Of a stretch of 42,388 bases of DNA, positions 14,501 through 29,247 are shown in pieces. A program made the translations under genes and the position numbers. The notes beneath the pieces are model-generated. The model had not been told where the DNA came from. It saw only the letters and a program-made list of their open reading frames with translations, and ran no database searches. Each line of letters opens with the position of its first letter. Position 1 is the stretch's first letter. Location: positions 1-42,388 of the forward strand of contig ML002317.1 of assembly GCA_003614675.1 (NCBI GenBank), read 5' to 3'. The stretch comes from Dimargaris cristalligena. Taxonomy: Eukaryota.

Positions 14501-16355
14501 CTCCTTTGTCCAGCGCAATCAGGCCATTTCTCCAAACTTACCGATAGGCCGGCATCTTATCCGTGGTTTCGTCGATGGAGTCACCCCGCTCGGATGTTCC
14601 GATTTTGAGGTCGTAGCCGCCCTATACAATATGACCATATGGAGAGTCGTAAAAATAATAATAATTTTTAAAAAAAAAGAGGGGGACACCATGATCCCGA
14701 ATAATAATGCAAAGAAATAGATTATAATTGGATGTCATTAGGGCTCGGTTGCGCATCGGATGGGGGAGGTCAGGCGGAAGTCCTTTAACCCGCGATGCGT
14801 GGGATACCTCTCTCGCTTGGCATTGGCGTGATTGTCTATATAGGTATATATATGTATATATATATTTGAATGAATGAGCTAGGCTTACCGGGTAAGGGCA
14901 TTCGGAGAAAACCTGGGATATCGAATTCGCCAATCGAATCTGATAACCCCAGTATATGCCGTCTTTTTCCCGGGGCATACGAGGCGAGACTACCGTCCCA
15001 CTCGGGTTTTTGGTTTCTGTGGGTGTAAACGAAGCACCCAAATCGGGATGGAAGATTGATAACATAAAGGTAGATATACAGGTCATGTTATTAGTAGGCT
15101 ATGGAAAATAGAAGTTGAAGACGACACCAGTCATTTTTAATATATATATAGAAACGCTAGTCAGCTATCACATCTGTGCTTCATGGGTAAATAATAAGTC
15201 GATTGACCAGACTATTAAGAAGGGGGTGACTTCCGAACTTACCCAAGTGTTCAAAATCGTCCATCTTGACAGTCACCCGAACATTCGGCTGAATCGATCG
15301 GTTGATCATGACGTAGCGACGCAGACCACAATTGACAAACGTGCGCGAACCGCCCCGGACCGGGCCACCACTTTGGACCTGATTACGTTGGGGCAGCGTA
15401 ACCCCCTCCCGGTACGGACTCGGTTCGTCCTGGCGGACATGGTGGGGACAATCCAACGGATTCAGCAGCCTCGCGTAACGCAGATCCGGGTGCATGGGGA
15501 ATAGGGCGCGCCGCAGGTACTGGGGCGTTTCGAGGTACTGCAAAACGCGGGACAGAAAGAGGTGGGGGTCGGACTGCTGGTTGGCCGATTCGAAGACTCC
15601 CTGGAGGGATTCGCCCCGGGCGACAGGAACGACGGAAGACGAAGCAGCATTGGGTTTCCGTTGGGAATGGCCAGTCTTATTAGCAGTGCCATCGTCATCA
15701 TCATCATCACTATTATTGTCATCATCGCTGTCCGCATTGGGGTTAGCGCCCTTCTTCGACGAAGCCGCAGCAGGGTATTGGCTACGGCGCTGGCATTGAT
15801 CGTCGTAAATCACGATTTCGTCCACGTTGAACACGGCGGCGGCCCGCGCGATCTGGCCGGCTAGATAAGTACGCAATTCGGCGGACTGGGCGTTATCGAC
15901 AATCGACCCTGGAAGAGCAATGCTCACGGTATACTGCCGGCCTGGGCCCTGCTGGGGTTCGGTAGCATCCGGGGCAGGGGCGTCCTTGTCATTGGTCGAC
16001 GGCTCGGGGGAAGCGACGGTGACTTCCGCTGAAGAGGAATCCAGGGGAGTTTCCGCTGGGACTGCGTCGCTCGACTCATTCTTGGACTTCTTGAGCGGTT
16101 GCGCATTAGTACCAGTCGGAGCTTCCGAGGTGGGGGCGGTCGAGCTACGTTTCTAATAAGAAAAGAATAAAGTCGGGTTTTATACAGCATAACCAAGCGG
16201 AGATTAGGTACGAATGCCGAATTAGCGCAAGGCTGCTCCTTGTAAGAATTCCGAGCGCTACTGCGAGGACACGATAGTCGTACCCATGTGGATTGCAGTC
16301 CTTTCTGGGAGACATTTACGCTGTGGCTCGGTCTTACTTTATTTTTGGGGGCCAT
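11511..16355 (-). CDS. SPOUT1: SPOUT-family RNA methyltransferase (SPOUT1/C9orf114/CENP-32 family), 454 aa. Exons: 16355-16338, 16152-15243, 15016-14889, 14621-14542, 13917-13764, 11585-11511
   Basis: Family motifs in order: GRQYTVSIALPGSIVDNAQSAELRTYLAGQIARAAAVFNVDEI, LQYLETPQYLR, LLNPLDCPHH, YREGV, YWGYQIRLA, GYDLKIGTSERG, HLLVVFGG, FDLWLNTCPNQGSRTIRTE|EAILVTMAAL. All five introns are GTAAG...YAG with compatible phases (0,1,0,2,0); summed exon length is 1365 nt. Confidence 0.92.
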
Positions 16356-17071
16356 GGTGTCAATTCGTTCACGAATGAGAATCCGAGCGGTCGATCAATG
16401 GATATATCGTAGAATAAGCAACGACGGGGAAAAAACACAAAAATATTGAATGTAGGTCTTTAGGACTTAACGAACTGAGCTGGGTAATGGGACAATACCT
16501 TTTGTCAAAAATATATATTTCAAAAAAAAAAATGAATCAGTGTATATTTTTAAATGGTCTATTTTTTTAACGGTCCTATTTTAGGCTGATGATGTAATTT
16601 TGGACTATTAAGAGCTGGCTTGAATGTATCCGAACCTTTTTGCTTACCTTTAAACTGATTTAATGAGGGAGAAATTTAACCTGGCTGAGTAACGAGCAAA
16701 CTATGTATGGGATCAAGAAGTTTCGAATAAGAATAGAAGGCCTGCTCAAGTTTCCAGAAATGTGGTTATCCAATTATTCATACAGCCGGGTTCAACGGGG
16801 TCCATTTATTCGTTCAAATCAGCCCAATTTATCGGATGGAATAGTGAAACCCCGATTATGTTGGCTCTGATATTATATACCGGTGATTTATAACACAATC
16901 CGTAAGTGTATGTATTATTATAATTCGATAGAATTTAATAGGTAAAGTGGGACACGCCTGCAAATGTAGCGAGGGTTTGGGCCATATTCTACCATGCTAA
17001 TAGTTTCCAGTCACAAACTAAAGCCACATCAACTACCTATATATTTGATTTAATTTACACTCTAGTTTTTC

Positions 17072-17189
17072 AGTTGCGGCCATATGTCGGGATTTGCTCC
17101 GTATCCCGTTGGATCTGCGAAGATAAGCCCTGAACAGTTGATTTAGTACTAAGGTGGGAGACCACTTGGGAATAGTCAATGCTACAGCT
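17072..17189 (+). rRNA. 5S rRNA, dispersed copy 1
   Basis: 118 nt (AGTTGCGGCCATATG...TAGTACT...GGGAGACC...GGGAATAGTCAATGCTACAGCT). Helices I-V can be paired by hand, a GAGA tetraloop closes helix IV, and a T5 run follows. Confidence 0.93.
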
Positions 17190-17193
17190 TTTT
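17189..17193 (+). terminator. Pol III oligo-T terminator of 5S copy 1
   Basis: TTTTT directly at the 3' end of the gene, with a further TCTTTT just downstream. Confidence 0.75.
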
Positions 17194-18267
17194 ATCTTTT
17201 AATTTTGCTACCTCCGAATAGAACGGACAATAGGTGCCAGGAATTGGAATATAGGCGAATACTATGGGGCCACATTATTCATAGCTTCTAGTAACAATAC
17301 TACTACTACTTTAATTATTTTTCGTTGGGCTAAAGTGTGGTTCTTATGAGGCACCTGCTCTATTATCATACAACAAGAGTCCATGAAACCTAATATAGTC
17401 TTGTACAAAAATAGCACCAAAGCCTTACTAAACAGGCTACAGCCTGGGTTTTATACAAAATCCTATATTCTATGAGCCGAGCGTTTCCTATATTCTTCTA
17501 ATCGACAACAGCCTCCGTGCGATTTTTTCGCATTTAATTCATATTCTCACTGACCGGGCCCAGGTCATTTTAAACGAAATTTAATCACAGTTTTGTTACT
17601 TTTACATGGACGACAAAATATAGGGCATTCTAAATAATGGAAAGCTGGTAAAAAAGGGGTAAGAAGAGATGCGATTTCGCCATTGAGACCACCCACGCTA
17701 GTTCTCAAACACTGAGCATAAACACGCGGACTATAACGTATAACGAGTGGCAGTAATCCACACATCCATAAACGGCAAGGCTAAGGATATATATAAATTG
17801 GTATATATAAACTGAAATATATAGTATAATAAAAAAGGGCAGTGTATGTATAAATGTATGCATTTTCTGCAATCAAGACCCTGGAAACACAAGTGCAAGG
17901 AAGGACAGAGGAAGGGTGGTGATACGCAGCACGCTACTTGGATGGGCTGAACAGTTACATATGCTGACCAGTTGCGGAGTACAGTAATGGAAGTTGGCTA
18001 ATTGACGAGGGGGGAAGGAAATCAAATACACATAGAAAATGAATGACCAGCAGTGAAGGGTAAAAGGAGGTGTGAATGCACAGAGGATTACAACTAATAA
18101 ATAAATAAATAAATAATAAGGGCTGGAAATACGGGGGTGAGGTAGGGTTTTACTAGACAATAAACAAATAACCCCTTAGACCTGAGAAAGTCCAACACAA
18201 CGCAAGGGGGCTGTGTTGTGTGGTTATCAACCCCCGAGAAAGGATGGTCATAACGCAGTCCTTTAGT

Positions 18268-19335
18268 TTAGGCCCGGTTCTGGAACTGGGAGGTAGCGTA
18301 ACTGGTGGCAGCCTGCTGGGCCGTCTTGGACGAAGCCACGCTGGAAACCGCCTGGGCCTTGGCATCCTCAAAGGTATGGCCCTGCGACTTGTAGTGCAGG
18401 TGAATCTTACGGTACATGAACAGGGCGAACAGGCCGCCGGCCAGGAAGCAGGCGCAGGTCAGTATACAGAACACCCCGGCCACGACCTTACCGGCCGAGA
18501 ACATACTGATGGCGTTAATGAGGCCGGACGACCCGCTGTACGGAATGCCCACGGCCAGGTAAAACGACACGAGAATATGCAGTCCACCGAAAATGAAGTA
18601 AAAGTAGTAATAGAGGGACTTTTCTTTCATGTAGGCGTTGTACAGCGGGCGGTACCAGAAGAAGAAGGACAGTAAGGTGACGGTGAAGAGGTAGCTGAAA
18701 CTCACCCCAAAGTCGGTGGGCGCACTGGTGACACCTTCGGCATGGGAGACGAGCATAACGAGGGCGGCTATGCAATTGAATACCAGAGTAGCCTCCAAAA
18801 ACAGCCAGTACCACCACATGCGCTGCATGACGGGCTGGCTAGCAGCGGGGATCTCGGCCTTGATGTCCATGTAGATGAACGGGAAGAACGGGGGGAAGTT
18901 ATTCGGGGGCCGTCCACTTTTGCGGATCTCTTCACTCTGGGCCTGGAGTTCCAGTTCCCGCTGGGCCAGCTCCTGTTCCCGGCGTTGTAGTTCGGCCTCG
19001 CGCGAACTGAGGTGGGTCGGGTTGGTCGGTGAGGGCATGCCGCTGACGTCCACGGAATGGTGGCCACTGTTGCGGCCGCTACTGTTGTTGCCGTAGGGGT
19101 AGTGGGTAGCGTCGTCGCCTAAGGCAACGAAATCCATGCGCTGGCTCTCGGTACGCGACCGACTCGGGTCGTGGAAGGAAGGGGCGGGCACGGTGGCGTG
19201 GTGGTGGGCGTCATCTGCGGCGATTTGGGTGGAGTTGAGGGCATGGTTGATGCTAGGGTCGGCGAACGGGTCTTGGACCTCGTAGCGGGCATCATCAAAG
19301 GGGTTGGCGTTAGGGTTGGTCGGTGGGCGCGACAT
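18268..19335 (-). CDS. SCAMP: Secretory carrier membrane protein (SCAMP family), 355 aa, intronless
   Basis: N-terminal NPF/DPF motifs, coiled coil (REAELQRREQELAQRE), NNFPPF motif, four hydrophobic segments, and E-peptide-like FWYRPLYNAY. Confidence 0.92.
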   Translation of the reverse strand: MSRPPTNPNANPFDDARYEVQDPFADPSINHALNSTQIAADDAHHHATVPAPSFHDPSRSRTESQRMDFVALGDDATHYPYGNNSSGRNSGHHSVDVSGMPSPTNPTHLSSREAELQRREQELAQRELELQAQSEEIRKSGRPPNNFPPFFPFIYMDIKAEIPAASQPVMQRMWWYWLFLEATLVFNCIAALVMLVSHAEGVTSAPTDFGVSFSYLFTVTLLSFFFWYRPLYNAYMKEKSLYYYFYFIFGGLHILVSFYLAVGIPYSGSSGLINAISMFSAGKVVAGVFCILTCACFLAGGLFALFMYRKIHLHYKSQGHTFEDAKAQAVSSVASSKTAQQAATSYATSQFQNRA

Positions 19336-19446
19336 TGCGGATATAGGGTATGCGGCGGGGAACGGGCCGGCGCTAGGCGGGGGGATTACTGGTTAAGTGA
19401 GCACAGTGATGGGTGAGTGAGTAAGAAAGCAAGAGAGAGGGGGAGA

Positions 19447-19451
<5 letters not shown>

Positions 19452-19482
<31 letters not shown>
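19452..19482. repeat. (AG)n microsatellite upstream of SCAMP
   Basis: About 15 perfect AG units, reading (CT)n on the SCAMP sense strand. Confidence 0.9.
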
Positions 19483-19486
<4 letters not shown>

Positions 19487-20781
19487 TAGAAGGTGGTAAA
19501 AGAGCAGTGGCGGGGAATGCAAGATGGAGAGTGGAAAGGAACCAAACAACGGAAAACAGAGAGCATAAAATGAGAAGGGGGGAAGAGAAGAGAACAAAGG
19601 CGAAGAAACCTAGGCTAGGTGCTGGAGGAAGCGCAGGTGGGAAAACTTATCCATTGAGTGGGAGAGAGAGTGTGTGTGCCCTTTTCTTGGCAACAGCACT
19701 CCAGGGTCCAACGGAGAATAAGGCAGTAAGTAAGCTTAGGTGAGAGCGATGAAGAGAGAGAAAGAGACTATAAAAGACCGAAGGTTCGAAGGGGCTATTG
19801 TCGGTCCTTTCCTCAGACAAGGTAATAGTGGGAATAAACCGGCAATGCCAAGCCGTCTCCATCCGATTACACTTGAAACCCCGCCCGCCTCTTTCCAACA
19901 CCTTTGCGGATACATATAATATATATACAGCAAATCTCCCCATTCACTACTATAGTGTACTTATCCTTGGTGTGCACCGCCCCCATGGCTAACAACCTCC
20001 AACTTTTCATAATGGTTGTTCAGATAAGCCTTATTAGATTATTATTATTATTATTAACAATATCTCCACTCCTATATCCACACTGTGGGTGCCCCCCCCC
20101 TGGCAATATACTTTTCGATACGCCATTGTTTCGAGGCAGTGTGACGTGGCCACGTTGCTATTGCCATTGCTATGGCTATTGCGCTGGCCCATACTGGTAA
20201 TCTGGTTGCTTCATACGCGGCGAAAGGTAGAGAGGTTTTTAAGTGGGGTGTGGCTTATCCAGTATATACGTCTTGTAGCACATTGCCACCCTACACTGGC
20301 CTGTGACTGGTCCCGGTGCTTCTCGATTTATTGGATTCAAAAATACCGCCAGTTAGTGTCACCTAATCTTGTATTCCAATACTTTATACCTAAAATCCCC
20401 TAAACCAAATGAGAATACTGGCCAATCACTCCCAAGTCTAGACGATAATTGCGATGAGGGGCCCACCATTAAGGTGTTAGAATCAATGGATATATGACAA
20501 TACAAAGCCTTAGTGTATCAAAGTGAATGAAAGTAAAGAAAGCTGCAAGAGTTGCGTGGAATACACTCCACCATGTGTTTTATTGTATGACTATTGACTG
20601 TAAAGAAAGCTGGGATATAATTCTCTCTATGATGGGAGAATCTCCAAGAATATAATTTGATAGAGGCGTGAGCTGCCTTTCTAACAAAAGGCACGGGTGC
20701 TTCCTAAAATAAAATCCAGCAAGGCCGCTCGTAAATCGCTTCTGTTTTCTCCCATGTATACTTCCAACGTATACACACACT

Positions 20782-20783
20782 CA

Positions 20784-20813
<30 letters not shown>
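20782..20813. repeat. (CATA)n tetranucleotide repeat downstream of the kinase stop
   Basis: About 8 tandem CATA units seen directly. Confidence 0.9.
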
Positions 20814-20817
<4 letters not shown>

Positions 20818-20919
20818 GATATAAGGAGAGCCATTCCAGATAGTGCAGGTGGTTTTTATAAAGAATATATATTATTACAGAACAAATCCATCATGCGTGT
20901 AAATATCAGTGCAGTAAAA

Positions 20920-23900
20920 TCACCCGTGGCCCGTTGGTTTATTCTTCGGCGCCGTTGTGGTGGTTGCTGTTGTCGTCGTCGCCGTTGGTGCTGCGCTCGA
21001 CGACGGCGACGCTCCCGAATTCCGCCACCCTTTCAGGCCCTTCGCAATACTCACCGACAACCGCCGTAAGCCACGCGTAATTTTGCGGGACCATTGGAAC
21101 GACGGGGCCAGGGCATCCTGGATATCGCGGGACGACACATGCACTTCGGGGTAGTGTTGGCGCACATTGGTGTCGCGCGCCCAATTCGACCCGCCATTGG
21201 CCAACCCTTCGACCACCCAGGGGTGTTGTTTGACTTGGTCAATGGTGATCCGGGACCGGAAATCCTTGTCCATGAGGCGGTCGAGAAGGTCGCGGAGGCT
21301 GGCCGGGATGGGACCGTCGGCCCGTGTTGGGGGCCGTTTCGGCGGGGCTTCGAAGTTGGCGCTGGGGTTGTGCATATAATGAGGGTGATTGGTGTCCGGA
21401 CCATTAGCGCTGGGATCCTTATCATCGCTATCGTCATCGCCGTCAATATCGTAAAGGGGGTCCTGGCGGGGGATTACCTGGAACAGCTCAAATTCATTGT
21501 CCGCCACAAATGGACACCGACCGTAGATGAGGCAGTACAGGGTAACCCCCATGGCCCAGACATCAATGGCCTTGGTAATCCCCTGGTAACTTGGGGTCGG
21601 TGAAGGCGGGTAATTCAGAAAGTCTTGGATCGGCTGTTCTAGAATCGGGTGCAGTTTAGCCGCTGCACTCCCCGCGGCGGGGTGGGCGATACCCGAAGTG
21701 CCGCCCATCTCCGGGGGGGCCGTTTTAGTCTTGGCCAAAGGGGTGCTCGACCCGGGTCCTCGGGTCTTGGAGTCACTGGCGGTACCAAGCGGGCCACCTT
21801 GGGTACCCGAAAAAAGGGATATGGATCGCAGTAGGGCAGGGGAGGCCCGTTCGTGGGATGGTACGGACGAAGATGCTGCCGCCGCATCTTGGGACATGGG
21901 ACTGTAAGACGCCCGGCGGCCCATCAAATACGAAGGCGGAACGAGCAGGGGCGGCTTATCACTCGCGGTTGCCGCGGCCAGGGCAGTAGAACTAATCGTG
22001 CTACTCTGGGCGCGCTTATGATTCAGCGGAACCCGGGGGGCTGGCTGGTGAGGGAGTACACTGACCTGGGACTGGGTGGCGGGGGAGAGTGCAGCCAGCC
22101 ATTTCCAGCGGGGTGTAGTAACCTCGCTATCAAAGCCACCGACACCAGGGGTTGTACCCCGGTCGGTATCGGTCTGAGTCCGCCGCACTTTGGTACCATT
22201 AATCAAATCGGTATCCAGGCGCAATGAATGGTCACGGTGTGGGATCGTAGGGGATGTGCCTGGACCCATAGCATTAGCTGGGAGTCTAAACCCATTAGTG
22301 TTGGAACCCCCCGGGGCAGGAGGGACGTCCACCTGATTGGACGGAAAAGTTCGATTAAGGGATAGGGAACGGTGTACGGGTTGGGCGTAGGTGGTCCGGG
22401 TTGACGGGGCGGCCTTGATAATACGGGAATGGCGTGGGGGTGAAGCCGGTGGCAGGACCAGTCCGGGTGTCGATTCAATACTATTGCGTAGAATAGTGGA
22501 ACGAGGCCCCCGTTTATTGTCGCTAGTAACATGGGCAGCCGCGGCGTCTTCTTCAGCCACCACAATAGCCGGGGGTGGCGAGTAGTTTGCCGAAGCGGGT
22601 AATAAGAGGGGCGATGTTGGTGGCGGGGGTTCCTCCCGCGTTACGGGGGAGGGTGAGGAAAGCGAGGGTTTCCGTGAATGGGAGGACCGGTTTAGGATAT
22701 GGCCTAGAATGAGTCCCGACAAAGAGGGTCGCCGGGTCTGGAGCACGGGAGATATAGGCGGGAGCGAAGCAGCAGCAGTGGTCGATGGGTCGTCATTGGG
22801 ATTACGCCGACGGCCAGCGGTGGTGGTTTGGGGGATTTTGGCGGGAGCGGGGGTAGGCGTAGTATCCGTCGGGTCATCCGGGGGTACCCATTCCTGGGCG
22901 AGGGGATGTCTTTTGGACCGCCACTCTTTCAGAAGCTTATTCAATTCCGGGGCCGTGCAGCATAGTTCGGGGGCAAAGAAGGCGGGACTGCCCACGGTTT
23001 TGGCCAGCTCCTGGTCGTAATCATTGGGGGAGGTGGGTTCCGGCGGTAGAGCCGAATCAAGGGGTTGGGAAGGACCACTCGTATTGTAAACGCTGCCGTC
23101 GTCGTCGCCGTAGTCATGTTCGCCTAGGGCACCGAAAGGTAGTCGGGCCGGCCAATGGATTGACGAGGGACGCGATGAGGTGGAGAGGCCTCGACTTGAA
23201 AGCGATGACCGCGGTCGGTCTTCGGTGGGATAATTCCCACCATCGCCCGGCTCGTGCGTATCAGCCGACCACCTTAGAGCACTCGAGGTTTTCGGTAGTG
23301 TGGAGCGCCCCTCCAAAGTGGGGGCTGGGCCACCTGTTGCGGAATGAAGGGAAGGCGGGGCACTGGGCACGGCGAACTCGGGCGGATCGTATGTTTCTAC
23401 TTCGGCCTCCGAGGGATTGAATTCAAAGTCCGACCAAAAATCATCACTGTCGCTTTCGTCCAAGTCGTCGTAGTTGACCAAACTGAGACCCAGACTACCG
23501 TTGCGTCGGCTTGGTAGGCGGAAGACCTGGTCGCCATAGTCCGAAGAGGGCTCGGATAGAGGGGAGGAATGGAGTGCCATGGTGGCGGGATTGCGGTCGT
23601 TGAGCGGAGGTGAAGCCCTCGGTTTCGTAAAAGGGCCCTCTGATGATGGGGTACCGTCCTGCTGGTGTATTGATTCCGAATCAGTTTCGTCATCCGAGTT
23701 AAAAATTAAAATAGGAGTGCGGGGCTTGGGGGAGGCTAAAGGGCTGGCCGTTGTCAGGCGGGCTGGTATAGCGGATGGTGCCGTGGTCAACGATGCTGAT
23801 CTATCCCGCCCATTAGTCACTATGCCAGTGGAGTCAGCTAGGCGGGGTGAGTAGGAGCCAGGCGATGGAAACCCGCTACTACTGCTACCACCACCTCCAC

Positions 23901-25158
23901 CCTGACCATTTCGACGGTCACGGGTAGGCGAATGTTGAAGAGCTGGCGCTTGATGATGTATCCGGTGGTCCAGGTGGACCGAGGTGTGCTTAGGGTTCAC
24001 AGTATAGTCATTAAATGCGGAGTGTATAGTTTGACTGGGGCGCGATGGAGGCGCTTCCACGGAGGCCGGTGATGAAAGATACCGTGGCGTACTCCGGGTC
24101 CGCCGCGGAGTCTGTGATTGGGAGGATTCGGAGAGGCGCCAGGGGGCCATGGCGGACAGAAGCCCCGTCAGTGGGCCGGCGTGACCCTCGGATGCAAAGG
24201 AAGTAATGGATGGCCGGTCAGGGGGAGGAGCAGTCAGTGAATGGGAGTCGGACCGACAGTTGCGAAGGCGCCCCGCCACCGTCGAAGCTGAAGTCGTAGT
24301 AGTGGTGGTGATGGGGTGAGGGGGCGCTACGGTGGGTTGCTGACTGAAATGGGAGACGCCGAAATCGGATATTTTCACGGTTCCGTCCTGGGCCCTCAAC
24401 AAATTGGCCGGCTTAATATCGCGGTGAATGATTCCTTGGTAATGCAGGTATTCCACGCCCAGGACGAGGTCTCGAAAGATACGGCGGATTTCGTCTAAGC
24501 CGAGTAGTGGCCGTTCCTGGGCGTCCCGCCACTGGATTTCACCCCGCTCCAAGTACTCTAGCACTAAATAGATTTTACGAGCGGCGGGGTCGTCGATAAC
24601 TTCGTAGAGATGGACCACGTTGGGGTGCTGGCATTTTTTGAGGATGGCGATTTCTTTACGTATTTTTTCGACCTGGGTTTGGGAGACCCGGCCGTTGTTA
24701 GCCCAGACCAGACTGGGGGGTATAGTTGGGGTGCCGGCCGCAGCAGGGGCGGCAGTAGTAGTGGCAGTGGCGGCGGCATCGGAATGGCCGTTGGTGGAGC
24801 CGGGGGTTGAATTCAGTGGGGGAGACACGGACGGTTGGCGGCCCAGGGGCGACTGATTCCAACGCGCACTGAGGCGGCGAACCCCGCCGCCCTGCCATTT
24901 GTCGATGATTTTGATGGCGTACCGCTGACCGGTGGTAATGTCGACGGCCAGCCGTACCCGACCATGCACGCCGCGGCCTAGACATTGGTGGAGGACGTAC
25001 TGGTTAATCATCTTGCGGCCGGTTTCGTGGTCGTAGTCGACAACCATGTGGGCGGTTTCCTTAGCCGGAGAGACCAGCAGGTGCTCGTCCCGGGGTAGAC
25101 AACCACCCTGGTTATGGCCCCGTGCGGCCGTGCCGGAAGGCGGGGGTGGTGGGCCCAT
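20920..25158 (-). CDS. Ser/Thr kinase of the CAMKK / SNF1-activating kinase group (SAK1/TOS3/Ssp1-like), about 1412 aa, with very large inserts in the catalytic domain
   Basis: Motifs KET...KMINQY, GRGVHGRV, YAIKII, KEIAILKKCQHPNVV, IYLVLEY, YLHYQGIIHRDIKPANLL, KISDFGVS, ELAKTVGSPAFFAPELC, DVWAMGVTLYCLIYGRCPF, RITIDQVKQHPWV. The first ATG of the frame is at 25158. Confidence 0.9.
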   Translation of the reverse strand: MGPPPPPSGTAARGHNQGGCLPRDEHLLVSPAKETAHMVVDYDHETGRKMINQYVLHQCLGRGVHGRVRLAVDITTGQRYAIKIIDKWQGGGVRRLSARWNQSPLGRQPSVSPPLNSTPGSTNGHSDAAATATTTAAPAAAGTPTIPPSLVWANNGRVSQTQVEKIRKEIAILKKCQHPNVVHLYEVIDDPAARKIYLVLEYLERGEIQWRDAQERPLLGLDEIRRIFRDLVLGVEYLHYQGIIHRDIKPANLLRAQDGTVKISDFGVSHFSQQPTVAPPHPITTTTTTSASTVAGRLRNCRSDSHSLTAPPPDRPSITSFASEGHAGPLTGLLSAMAPWRLSESSQSQTPRRTRSTPRYLSSPASVEAPPSRPSQTIHSAFNDYTVNPKHTSVHLDHRIHHQAPALQHSPTRDRRNGQGGGGGSSSSGFPSPGSYSPRLADSTGIVTNGRDRSASLTTAPSAIPARLTTASPLASPKPRTPILIFNSDDETDSESIHQQDGTPSSEGPFTKPRASPPLNDRNPATMALHSSPLSEPSSDYGDQVFRLPSRRNGSLGLSLVNYDDLDESDSDDFWSDFEFNPSEAEVETYDPPEFAVPSAPPSLHSATGGPAPTLEGRSTLPKTSSALRWSADTHEPGDGGNYPTEDRPRSSLSSRGLSTSSRPSSIHWPARLPFGALGEHDYGDDDGSVYNTSGPSQPLDSALPPEPTSPNDYDQELAKTVGSPAFFAPELCCTAPELNKLLKEWRSKRHPLAQEWVPPDDPTDTTPTPAPAKIPQTTTAGRRRNPNDDPSTTAAASLPPISPVLQTRRPSLSGLILGHILNRSSHSRKPSLSSPSPVTREEPPPPTSPLLLPASANYSPPPAIVVAEEDAAAAHVTSDNKRGPRSTILRNSIESTPGLVLPPASPPRHSRIIKAAPSTRTTYAQPVHRSLSLNRTFPSNQVDVPPAPGGSNTNGFRLPANAMGPGTSPTIPHRDHSLRLDTDLINGTKVRRTQTDTDRGTTPGVGGFDSEVTTPRWKWLAALSPATQSQVSVLPHQPAPRVPLNHKRAQSSTISSTALAAATASDKPPLLVPPSYLMGRRASYSPMSQDAAAASSSVPSHERASPALLRSISLFSGTQGGPLGTASDSKTRGPGSSTPLAKTKTAPPEMGGTSGIAHPAAGSAAAKLHPILEQPIQDFLNYPPSPTPSYQGITKAIDVWAMGVTLYCLIYGRCPFVADNEFELFQVIPRQDPLYDIDGDDDSDDKDPSANGPDTNHPHYMHNPSANFEAPPKRPPTRADGPIPASLRDLLDRLMDKDFRSRITIDQVKQHPWVVEGLANGGSNWARDTNVRQHYPEVHVSSRDIQDALAPSFQWSRKITRGLRRLSVSIAKGLKGWRNSGASPSSSAAPTATTTTATTTTAPKNKPTGHG

Positions 25159-26411
25159 GTGGTGTGCGGAAAGAGTAGGGGTTGTAGACTGAGGGGTGAA
25201 GAAGAAGTAGGTGGCGTAGATATACCCCCAAGGTATCACACCAATGAACTGACCAAAGAGGGTTCAAATTAGGGGAAGAGAAGCAAAGAGTATATGCGGC
25301 TAATGGTGGCTAAGCGATGCCTGGGAAAGCGTGAAGGAAGGGACCCTAATATAAAGATAGACCGTGGCCCCCCAATGGAGGTGAATAAGCAAACTAACTA
25401 TAGCTAGCTACCACTGGGATGGAAAGGAATGAGCAAGAGCTGCCCTGTGATGTGCTCTGTGGTTTTTGCCACCGTCGCCGGTCCTTGTTGCCAGAGGAAA
25501 CTACCTGCCTACCTACCTAATAACGGCTCTCAGAGCTGAACAACGGGGCCTCGGCTGACGCGAGCTCTCCGACACCAATAGCCAATGACCCAAACAGGCG
25601 TGGCCGGAGAACTCCGGAGTGCCACAAATACACACATGCGCAAATACACAGTAGTAAGCCATCAGGCATGGGGAGAGTGTGTGTGGTGCATTCCGCCAGC
25701 TATTAATACTTGTCCATAGTGAGGCCCATTATTAATCCCACAAGTACTTTAAGGAACCTGTAGCATTGCCCCTTTTCCATTAAACTCGACCGTCTGGTTG
25801 CCCCTAATTGATTTCCTTGTACTGAAGCGTATCTTGCCTGTTGGTTGTGTGTTCTTTTAGAGCGCTTAACACAATTGCGATGGTTTTACGCTGAAAGGGC
25901 TCTTTTGCCCTTTTGGCCATGTAATTGCATCCCGGCGGCAAGTGGTAGAGTAACGACCTTCCTAATTGGCTGACGAGCGGCTTATAATGCTGTGCTTGGA
26001 CTGTCACCTGCGGAAGGTACACCGCCCTCATTCCTCCATTCCACCCATCCCAAAAATACCAACCAACAAGCCTTTTATTAATATTGATTCCCATCTACTC
26101 CAACTGAAGGGTCTGGTGACGATGTTTCACCTTCCCATCTACATCCCTGGACTTCTATTGGCTTCCATTAAAGGATCGTGACTTGGGGGGTGGTTTAGCT
26201 GCGGCTGATTAATGCCCAAGGCCATTTCCTCGTCCAAATATAAAAGACGATCTTCTCCCCTCCTTCTACTCTTCCTTTCATTACTATCTCGAACAAGTGG
26301 ACTGTGGCATCATTTCTGTTTTCCCTATTCTGTATTATTTGCCGTATTTCGGCCCAGCCAGCTAAACTTTCTCGTAAAAACCAAGTACTGTCAAGCAGCC
26401 ACACTACGGAC

Positions 26412-26421
26412 TATATATAAG
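26412..26421 (+). promoter_or_regulatory. Putative TATA box of the TFIIB gene
   Basis: TATATATAAG about 260 nt upstream of the ATG, within the divergent kinase/TFIIB intergenic region. Confidence 0.4.
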
Positions 26422-26673
26422 TCTAAACGACTCCCTTAATTCAACCCTTTCCTCTTCGATCGTCAGTTCGTTAGAAAAAATAGAAGTCACCCCCATTCCT
26501 CGTTAGTCAGCCCAGCAGCCATTTGTTATCCTCCGACCTAGGTTGTGTATTCTCTGAACCAGATAACCATTTTAAATATATATAGACCTACTTACTATTC
26601 ATTCCTGTATTTCCCATTGCCCTATTTCTTCTACCAGTCCTATACCTTTTTGTATTTACCCCCCCTCTCCACC

Positions 26674-27609
26674 ATGGATCTCAACGTTAAACTGAATTGC
26701 CACCAATGCCGCAACCCCGTTCCCAATATCGTCGAGGAGTTCTCCTCGGGTGACATGGTCTGTGGGGATTGTGGGCTCATCCTGGGCGACCGTATCATTG
26801 ACACCCGCTCCGAGTGGCGTACCTTCGCCAACGACGACGGTGATGACCCTTCCCGAGTGGGTGCCGCCTCCAATCCTCTCCTGGACGGCTCGCAACTCGA
26901 CACCATCATCTCCCGCTCTGACGGCGGCTCCGGACTCTCCCGCGACTTGAATAAAATCCACGGTCGGTCCACCGCCGTCAAGGGTGAACGCATGCTTCTC
27001 GGGGCCTACAAGGAAATAACCTCCATGTGCGATCGCATGGGCCTAACCAAACTGATTTGCGATTCGACCAAGCAGTTGTTTAAGCGGGTCGAAGACGAGA
27101 AGATCCTCCGCGGCAAATCCACCGAGTGTATTATCGCTACCTGTATTTTTATCGCCTGCCGGCAAGAGAACGTACCCCGTACGTTCAAGGAAATTTTCAC
27201 CTACACCCGGGTACCCAAACGGGAGCTGGGCCGCTGTTACCGGATCCTGTCCAAGCACCTCACTACCAGTACCGTCGGGGTCATGTACAGCGAGGACCTG
27301 ATGGCCCGGTTCTGCTCCCATTTGGACTTGCCAATGCCCGTCCAGCGGGTGGCCATTGACGTGACCAAGGAGTCCAAGGAATTGGGCACCCTGGCTGGCA
27401 AATCGCCCGTCTCCGTGGCCGCCGCGTGCATCTACTTAGTCAGTCACTTGATGGGTACGCCCAAGTCGCCCAAGGACATCGCCAATGTCGCGGGTGTTTC
27501 GGAAACGACCATCAAGAATTCCTACAAATCCCTGTACTTGGTTCGGGAGCAGCTCCTTAAACCCGATATTATCAAAGATCCCGTTTTGGACCGTCTACCC
27601 GTTCCTTAA
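26674..27609 (+). CDS. SUA7: Transcription initiation factor IIB, 311 aa
   Basis: Zn ribbon CHQC...CGDC, B-reader IDTRSEWRTF, DPSRVG, two cyclin-like repeats (IACRQENVPRTFKEI; GKSPVSVAAACIY). The ATG lies in CCACCATGG context. Confidence 0.95.
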   Translation: MDLNVKLNCHQCRNPVPNIVEEFSSGDMVCGDCGLILGDRIIDTRSEWRTFANDDGDDPSRVGAASNPLLDGSQLDTIISRSDGGSGLSRDLNKIHGRSTAVKGERMLLGAYKEITSMCDRMGLTKLICDSTKQLFKRVEDEKILRGKSTECIIATCIFIACRQENVPRTFKEIFTYTRVPKRELGRCYRILSKHLTTSTVGVMYSEDLMARFCSHLDLPMPVQRVAIDVTKESKELGTLAGKSPVSVAAACIYLVSHLMGTPKSPKDIANVAGVSETTIKNSYKSLYLVREQLLKPDIIKDPVLDRLPVP

Positions 27610-28425
27610 ACGAGTCCCGTTTACCAGATTATAGAGGTAAGGGCGGATGGCGTGAATTGCTGTATGAAAAATGAGTATTATTATTCACTATATCACTATT
27701 TTTATAATAAAGTTCATTTTTCTACTTGACTGATGGGTTTAGTGACGGTGGGGGTCGGGGGAAAGTAAGGGGAGAGTGTACCGAGAGCGGGTCTATATTG
27801 TATGCTGAGGTTGAAAGAATCTTAGTCTACTTTATCCGAGGCCCTCGCCAAGGCCCATTCTACGATACACGCACTTGGAGCCTTTATCAACCAAAATTAT
27901 ATTGGCTTAAAATAATGAGCAACGAGATAATCTACGATTTTCATACAGGGTTGTTTGTCTGAATATTAGTTTAACCATGGAGTATAATACTAAAAGTCCT
28001 ATATCAGTGGTAAATAAACCCAGGATGTCCATCAATTCTTTCGAGAAATACCACAAACCCAATATTGATATTACTCGAATCACTAAGCATAAGCGTTGAT
28101 TTAGGAAATGACGAGGTACCCTTCCCTTCAATTTGGTCATTAGATGCAAATGGCACCTCACATTATAGGTATTCTAAGATGTATAGGGACGCAACCCATC
28201 GAAGTTGAAACAGGGTATTGGATGGAATGTAAGGAGCGAATCCACCATGCTGCTGTTCTAAAGCCCACTCTGATGGTAAGAGTATCAATCGTTCGTAAGA
28301 ATAAGGTTGTTGGGGGCAATTCAGGAGTTACATACCCATAAATATAGGTCGCAAAACTTATCTCCAAATCGACAATAGTCACGTGATTAAACGTTAATAA
28401 GATTTGAGTATATTGAAATTTTTCC

Positions 28426-28543
28426 AGTTGTGGCCATATGTACCAGTTTGCACCGTATCCCGTTAGATCTGCGAAGTTAAGTTGGTATCAGCTAATTTAG
28501 TACTGAGGTGGGTGACCACTTGGGAATAGTTAGTGCTACAACT
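28426..28543 (+). rRNA. 5S rRNA, dispersed copy 2
   Basis: 118 nt (AGTTGTGGCCATATGTACCAG...TAGTACTGAGGTGGGTGACCACTTGGGAATAGTTAGTGCTACAACT). All helices pair, a GTGA tetraloop closes helix IV, and a T6 run follows. Confidence 0.95.
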
Positions 28544-28548
28544 TTTTT
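28543..28548 (+). terminator. Pol III oligo-T terminator of 5S copy 2
   Basis: TTTTTT directly at the 3' end of the gene. Confidence 0.8.
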
Positions 28549-29247
28549 ACGTTTTAGTGATAATATTTTATTAATTTTGAGAGTTGGTAATATTTAGAAT
28601 CTACTTATAAAAAGGGGTTTGAATGGTATATACCCGATATAATTTAGTGCTCCTTGCATTTTTTTGAAAATTAGTGAAACCTGCCATACGAAACGCACAT
28701 TTTATTATTTAACTAGGTTGAAACATTCCTATGTACATTGTTGGTGGTGGGTAGGCATTAATGAATGTATTTAAAAACAGCAGAGTTGGGGCGTCCAAGG
28801 CTTATATAGGTGTAGTATTTTCGAGATAGCACGCTGACTATAGGTGGTAAAATGGATTAGTCAGTGACCTTCATTAATTAGCCTTGTCGAGACCTCGAAT
28901 CTGACCCAACTTATTTCGACATCATGATAAGTTAAAGAGGCCAACGCTTGCGTATAAAAGTTTAAGCGTCACCCAGTATAACACTTCTATTGTTCAATCT
29001 TTTTTTACCTGGTCTCTCTCTATTATACTGCCGTTATGTCTCCATGTTGCAAGGTAGACTTGTATCATTTGGAAATACTAGATATTAGGCATCTAGCAAT
29101 AGTTGCAATGTCCTCTCCAAATTGATCCAGTTGTCAAGTCTCAAACAAAACGGATTTTATCTATAATATAGTGGTAAATATCAGGTGTAATAGTAAAAAG
29201 GAGGCGTCTTTTTCAAACAGGAGGGGGGGCTAGAGCACTATCCATCG

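Follow-up and report, generated by a model that had tools for sequence, protein, structure and literature searches.

How can one genome hold two 5S ribosomal RNA (rRNA) genes that differ at nearly a fifth of their positions, and is the more divergent of the two still a usable gene? The question is raised by a stretch of 42,388 nucleotides (nt) from Dimargaris cristalligena (GenBank assembly GCA_003614675.1, contig ML002317.1, positions 1 to 42,388 of the forward strand; hereafter the window), in which two 5S rRNA genes, here called copy 1 and copy 2, lie 11 kb apart. An earlier reading of the letters (the original prediction) had taken the pair for divergent isotypes that differ mostly by compensatory base-pair changes. 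The results of the current analysis allow us to place these genes in a wider family. In the reading that we consider reasonably probable, dispersed 5S genes form a family that is not homogenised and that undergoes birth and death while purifying selection acts on the structure; copy 2 stands for its main type, and copy 1 for a type that is minor and derived but probably still usable.

Paired substitutions between the two 5S rRNA genes

Both loci are real 5S rRNA genes, as had been proposed; each matches the Rfam family RF00001 from end to end, at scores (Table 1) well above the gathering score of 38. At that score there is no further RF00001 match elsewhere in the window, nor is there any other rRNA match in it, and a blastn search (word size 7, both genes as query) found no 5S fragment in the window beyond the two genes. 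Compared without gaps, the copies have the same 5' and 3' ends and show 22 differences over 119 nt (81.5% identity), all within the first 118 nt and at exactly the positions that the original prediction had listed. The sequence of loop D (GAGA in copy 1, GUGA in copy 2) and the oligo-T terminators were likewise found as it had described them. Hairpin loops hold only two of the 22 differences, one at position 40 in loop C and one at position 88 in loop D. Twelve of the substitutions are transitions and ten are transversions, and the divergence is therefore not the product of one-directional, deamination-type decay; C-to-T decay resembling repeat-induced point mutation was ruled out on this ground and on the higher G+C content of copy 1 (0.48, against 0.44 in copy 2).

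The differences are concentrated in base pairs. Sixteen of the 22 sit in eight pairs, seven of which are standard in both copies. Six of the eight belong to the Rfam consensus structure and are changed on both sides (17-61, 18-60, 19-59, 20-58, 21-57 and 67-108); five of these, from 17-61 to 21-57, are consecutive pairs of helix II, the last of which, 21-57, is the one that is not standard throughout, being an A.C mismatch in copy 1. Inversion of the helix II arms, a cheap source of such compensation, was ruled out, as the sequence between the arms keeps its orientation. The other two pairs, 27-52 and 69-106, are absent from the Rfam consensus structure, and for these we turned to an alignment of eukaryotic 5S genes.

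A box C pattern retrieved 22 loci from a metagenome collection. Two of these (L009 and L019) are not 5S and two (L007 and L010) are truncated duplicates or pieces; with these excluded, 18 loci are 5S genes of unrelated eukaryotes, which served solely as structural reference. The reference alignment joins the two copies of the window with 16 full-length environmental genes (18 rows, 15 of them distinct), and the invariance of its columns 82-101 stems from the way the loci were found, by the box C pattern, and not from biology. All eight pairs are counted as standard in 15/15 distinct sequences. The pair 69-106 covaries and is standard in each of the 15 (CG 10, GC 3, AU 1, UA 1), whilst 27-52 is AU in 14 and UA in one, the U-A occurring solely in copy 1; its stacked neighbour 28-51 covaries as well (CG 13, GC 2). 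The alternative pair in the Rfam structure, 25-52, leaves copy 1 unpaired (G25.A52). A eukaryote-type structure that includes 27-52, 28-51 and 69-106 is 98.4% paired over the 15 distinct sequences, above all 500 shuffles and all slid controls. The claim that 16 differences fall in eight paired positions is thus upheld, for six pairs on the Rfam consensus and for 27-52 and 69-106 on the eukaryotic reference alignment.

Measured against either structure, both genes largely keep the fold, in which helices I-V meet in a three-way junction. Copy 2 forms all of its pairs (34/34 in the Rfam structure, 33/33 in the eukaryote-type structure) and has no non-standard pair; copy 1 forms 31/34 and 31/33, respectively. 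The non-standard pairs of copy 1 are C6.A113 and A21.C57, the two mismatches already named in the original prediction, with G25.A52 added only in the Rfam version of helix III. The energy on the canonical fold is -13.1 kcal/mol for copy 1 and -15.1 kcal/mol for copy 2. When 22 random substitutions were placed on copy 2 in 200,000 trials, five or more compensated pairs of the Rfam structure, the number observed being 5, arose in 3 trials, and seven or more of the eukaryote-type structure, the number observed being 7, arose in none (0/200,000). The random trials left a mean of 8.7-9.0 broken pairs, against 2-3 in copy 1. The count of compensated pairs, the random trials and the covariation together bear out the suggestion that structural selection acted on both lineages, and it is well founded that both evolved under selection for the 5S fold.

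A dispersed 5S family of several sequence types

The 5S family of this genome is dispersed, multi-copy and made up of several sequence types. In the window, both genes are single and non-tandem, outside an rDNA unit and among ordinary or housekeeping protein genes. Homology between the copies spans from about -6 (TTTTTC or TTTTCC) to the T-run; a single repeat pair, of 135 nt (17066-17200 with 28420-28554), takes in the genes, and the flanks, at 26-31% identity over 200 nt per side, are unrelated. A 5S-derived short interspersed element was ruled out, as the homology ends at the T-run without a tail. ARAGORN found no tRNA gene in the window, and therefore neither copy is a dicistronic tRNA-5S gene of the Yarrowia type.

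For a view of the wider family, Logan contigs from X1, X3 and X5, three DNA runs that stem from two studies, were mapped to positions 16900-28700 at 80% likeness; the counts given here are of the rows listed, outside which there were 481 pieces, 83 variant rows and 108 loose ends. At least 12 contigs of X1 (4, 5 and 3) leave the T-run of copy 2 at 28547-28549 for differing sequence, and at least 10 contigs of X5 enter at 28420-28421 from differing, AT-rich upstream sequence; there are therefore many copy-2-like genes with flanks of their own. The T-run is common to these paralogues of copy 2, as the contigs of paralogous loci diverge only at its end. Full-length 5S genes related to copy 1 are also found elsewhere, on a 44-kb contig of X5 at normal depth (15 differences from copy 1 over 17066-17195, 130 nt) and on a 475-nt contig of X1 (16 differences over the same 130 nt), and copy 1 is thus no orphan. 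The singleton that the original prediction had held up as the mark of a pseudogene is so far not what the runs contain, given this relative of about 88% identity in X1 and X5, one contig each. In addition, X1 holds a mosaic contig that is copy-2-like up to 28482, continues with five other letters and is copy-1-like from 17134, and X3 holds two loose ends with other 5' halves; therefore more than two versions of helix II appear to exist.

The type of copy 1 is the minor one. Summed contig depth, which by the tool's own warning does not equal copy number, was 580 in the copy 1 bin of X1 (unique baseline about 91), 966 in that of X3 (24) and 2630 in that of X5 (about 178), compared with 3431 (98), 6068 (about 405) and 12312 (202) in the copy 2 bins of the same runs, which makes the excess on copy 2 some five to seven times as large as the one on copy 1 in the three runs. 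Copy 1 is regarded as minor and derived because of its smaller contig pile, its lower Rfam score and its sole U-A at 27-52. The original prediction had suggested that it may be "a minor or decaying type": the first word stands on these three grounds, whereas the second would apply if copy 1 were a recently dead member of a live type.

The arrangement in the assembly is reproduced by the runs. A contig of X3 spans copy 1 and its flanks (16900-19404) without a difference, and in each of the three runs copy 2 is entered from both sides, by an upstream contig that covers its first 29 nt and by a separate downstream contig, which shows that the locus did not arise by mis-assembly. Over unique positions X5 departs from the window at about 0.4%, and over copy 1 at none; the latter carries no weight, since a stretch of 119 nt would be expected to hold only about 0.4 differences.

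The surroundings of the two genes are listed in Table 1. The protein encoded by the deacetylase gene is 99% identical to a D. cristalligena protein, the next fungal matches being Dispira (88%) and Tieghemiomyces (85%), and the lineage belongs to the Kickxellomycota, order Dimargaritales. A passage of PMC6899921 describes the members of this order as haustorial mycoparasites of Mucoromycotina. The kinase and the deacetylase can each be read as one long open frame with a very long low-complexity tail rich in Thr, Ser, Pro and Ala, and a large insert divides the kinase domain, which is seen as two Pkinase stretches. Just downstream of the 3' end of the kinase gene, 3.3 kb from copy 1, a dispersed repeat of 212 nt (20475-20686) resembles a solo long terminal repeat. 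It begins TGTTAGAA and finishes TTCTAACA, with an 8-nt terminal inverted repeat and TG...CA ends; the TAAGG and AAAGG on its two sides, which agree at 4/5 positions, may be a 5-bp target duplication. The contigs of all three runs stack exactly on it, at a depth of 1356-2612 against roughly 100-400 in the adjacent bins, and exit at 20475-20477 and 20685-20688; it has no match in Rfam. In the intergenic DNA, a long (GA)n microsatellite occupies 19419-19489 and a (CATA)n one 20780-20816, and run contigs break at 19405-19496.

Table 1. Positions of the two 5S rRNA genes, their associated signals and the neighbouring genes in the window (Pol III, RNA polymerase III).
Feature	Position	Strand	Evidence or remark
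SPOUT-type RNA methyltransferase	14622-15927	-	Neighbour of copy 1
TATA-like element TATATATTT, copy 1	17038-17046 (-34 to -26)	+	Read from sequence; putative Pol III upstream element
5S rRNA gene copy 1 (minor, derived isotype)	17072-17190	+	Rfam RF00001, 83.9 bits, model positions 1-120
T5 run, predicted Pol III terminator of copy 1	17189-17193	+	Sequence
SCAMP protein	18268-19335	-	Neighbour of copy 1
Long protein kinase, 1439 aa	20920-25239	-	Between the two 5S genes
TFIIB	26545-27609	+	Neighbour of copy 2
TATA-like element TTAATAAG, copy 2	28394-28401 (-32 to -25)	+	Read from sequence; putative function
5S rRNA gene copy 2 (main isotype)	28426-28544	+	Rfam RF00001, 100.8 bits, model positions 1-120
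T6 run, predicted Pol III terminator of copy 2	28543-28548	+	Sequence
Class I histone deacetylase, 620 aa	29248-31110	-	Neighbour of copy 2

The standing of copy 1

We propose the following mechanism for the origin of the pattern. Copies that sit singly between protein genes would allow old lineages to persist side by side, in a birth-and-death manner, and selection on the fold would restrict change in helices II, III and V to paired substitutions, with the loops nearly fixed. Copy 2 would belong to the predominant type, and the type of copy 1 would have spent most of its history as working 5S RNA. Since copy 1 retains the fold, a TATA-like box near -30 and a terminator, its transcription probably continues, and it can probably still enter ribosomes. 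Explaining it would call for no special function, and its differences from copy 2 may well be neutral.

A TATA box near -30 serves 5S transcription in fungi, as is known from work on Neurospora and S. pombe. Each copy has a TATA-like element at about this distance (Table 1), and a second one, TATAT, lies at -17 of copy 2; the G+C content of the 300 nt on each side is 36-37% for copy 1 and 33-39% for copy 2. Judged by position and sequence, the upstream boxes may act as Pol III elements. Within the gene, the internal control region of 5S, which we take to consist of box A, an intermediate element and box C (span 80-97), contains 11 of the 22 differences, with 7 in box A, 2 in the intermediate element and 2 in box C (positions 80 and 88). 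At position 88, and likewise at position 80 beside helix IV, the letters of both copies recur among the environmental 5S genes.

Several observations weigh against the account of a structurally selected family in which copy 1 is still usable. Copy 1 has two A.C mismatches, an Rfam score 17 bits lower and a slightly less stable canonical fold than copy 2, and as many as 7/22 differences lie in what we take to be box A, so that binding of the same TFIIIA is not assured. Among the rows listed there is no relative of copy 1 closer than about 88%. As to the contig piles, beyond the tool's own warning about summed depth, some records fit both genes at the 80% threshold (9, 4 and 16 records), and X5, with 66 million letters to the 27-29 million of X1 and X3, may hold DNA from a second organism, for instance a culture host. 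The case for a usable copy 1 is drawn from DNA; of the 5 runs listed, none is recorded as RNA, which in itself says nothing about expression.

The strongest rival, less probable than the account we favour though it retains an appreciable chance, is that copy 1 is a young pseudogene, whose type once worked, with the copy or the whole type now silent and starting to decay. It would account for the two A.C mismatches, one in helix I and one in helix II, which are uncompensated and which a single transition would turn into standard pairs, for the deficit of 17 bits and for the smaller contig pile, and it agrees with the lack of a near-identical sister among the rows listed. Yet only 2-3 pairs of copy 1 are broken where about 9 would be expected under unconstrained change of the same size, and the copy is full length and has both a TATA-like box and a T-run. 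Its 83.9 bits fall between the extremes of the 18 environmental eukaryotic 5S genes (78-116 bits), and its A at 88 in loop D and its A at 80 also occur among them.

It is improbable, in our judgement, that the isotypes are functionally specialised by life stage (spore versus haustorial growth, for example) and build distinct ribosomes, in the manner of the oocyte and somatic 5S of Xenopus. The structure has been kept in both types over a long divergence, the 11/22 differences in the presumed control region could allow differential factor binding, and differing 5S RNAs are reportedly present in Neurospora ribosomes (a finding attributed to Selker et al. in 1985). Birth and death with purifying selection explains the pattern without specialisation, however, and drift among equivalent genes would accommodate the hint of further helix II versions, beyond two, better than a two-state switch would. 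Slightly more doubtful still is the specific form of the idea, in which the mycoparasite keeps several structurally intact 5S isotypes, distinct chiefly in helix II, and loads them into ribosomes stage-dependently, in the free spore or germ tube as opposed to haustorial growth; were it true, stage-dependent loading would be a natural specialised-ribosome system in an early-diverging fungus.

A foreign or artefactual origin of one copy, by mis-assembly, contamination or transfer from a mucoralean host, we regard as scarcely credible: the mycoparasitic habit of the order (PMC6899921, in the passage already cited) and the doubled letters of X5 relative to X1 and X3 would suit it, but the X3 contig passes through copy 1 without a difference, contigs of all three runs enter copy 2 from both sides, and the copies share their 5' and 3' ends and a 24-nt stretch of loop C, one position of which is degenerate and for which the metagenome collection gave 0 matches. 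The loop C stretch is lineage-specific and present in both copies, and therefore both arose within the lineage and neither came from a host. Scans of the metagenome collection with the loop C and box C patterns found no close relatives of the window 5S genes.

Comparison with other 5S families

Within-genome variety of 5S genes, of the type seen here, has long been on record for other fungi. Neurospora crassa is said to possess dispersed 5S genes of several isotypes (alpha, beta and others), from work attributed to Selker et al. in 1981 and 1985, and to have different 5S RNAs in its ribosomes. The likeness to the family described here is close, with single scattered genes, unrelated flanks, and major and minor types that keep the 5S fold, and the divergence between copy 1 and copy 2 (22/119, with eight paired changes) is somewhat larger than that between alpha and beta of Neurospora. 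The two systems differ in that expression and ribosome entry are reported for Neurospora, whereas the copies in the window are known here from their genes. They also belong to different phyla, Ascomycota in the one case and Kickxellomycota in the other; filamentous ascomycetes, the only analogue named in the original prediction, are therefore an analogue and no more, the organism being a kickxellomycete of the Dimargaritales. The oocyte and somatic 5S genes of Xenopus differ at few positions, form large tandem arrays and are developmentally regulated; two 5S types per genome are common to both systems, whereas the genes of the window are single and far more divergent.

Birth-and-death evolution of 5S genes, with 18-83% pseudogenes, was reported for filamentous ascomycetes by Rooney and Ward 2005, as quoted in PMC5555474 and PMC10462631. 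The family described here resembles those families in that it is not homogenised, that divergent paralogues coexist and that some copies may be pseudogenes. In Yarrowia lipolytica, according to a passage of PMC2566860, the 5S genes are scattered and part of them are fused to tRNA genes. The scattering of 5S genes outside the rDNA repeat is shared with the window; in contrast to the fused genes, the copies in the window are without a tRNA, and each has its own AT-rich upstream region and TATA-like box. Full-text searches, judged by the listed titles and abstract openings and by passages of one paper, yielded no article on 5S genes of the Kickxellomycota.

Two further arrangements were seen amongst the environmental loci. 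Metagenome contigs of two related record sets (L002-L004, L006-L008, L012-L015, L017 and L020) represent an environmental eukaryote with many dispersed 5S genes with differing flanks, whose helix II comes in four or more forms distinguished by paired changes (GCAT, GTGT, GCGT and GCTG, with matching 3' arms). Compensation within this family is of the kind found in the window, and it suggests that such variation is common where the 5S genes are dispersed. In one environmental eukaryote (L016, 1-224 and 320-439), the large-subunit rRNA is followed, about 100 nt beyond its 3' end, by a 5S gene; this linked rDNA-5S arrangement is the reverse of the dispersal seen in the window.

The finding opens no new question, as the heterogeneity of fungal 5S has been on record since the 1980s, with its functional meaning unsettled. 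For annotation, it means that divergence alone does not make a 5S copy a pseudogene. The pair formed by copy 1 and copy 2 is a clean textbook case of compensatory evolution, and with it dispersed, non-homogenised 5S families with compensated isotypes are extended from the ascomycetes to the Kickxellomycota.

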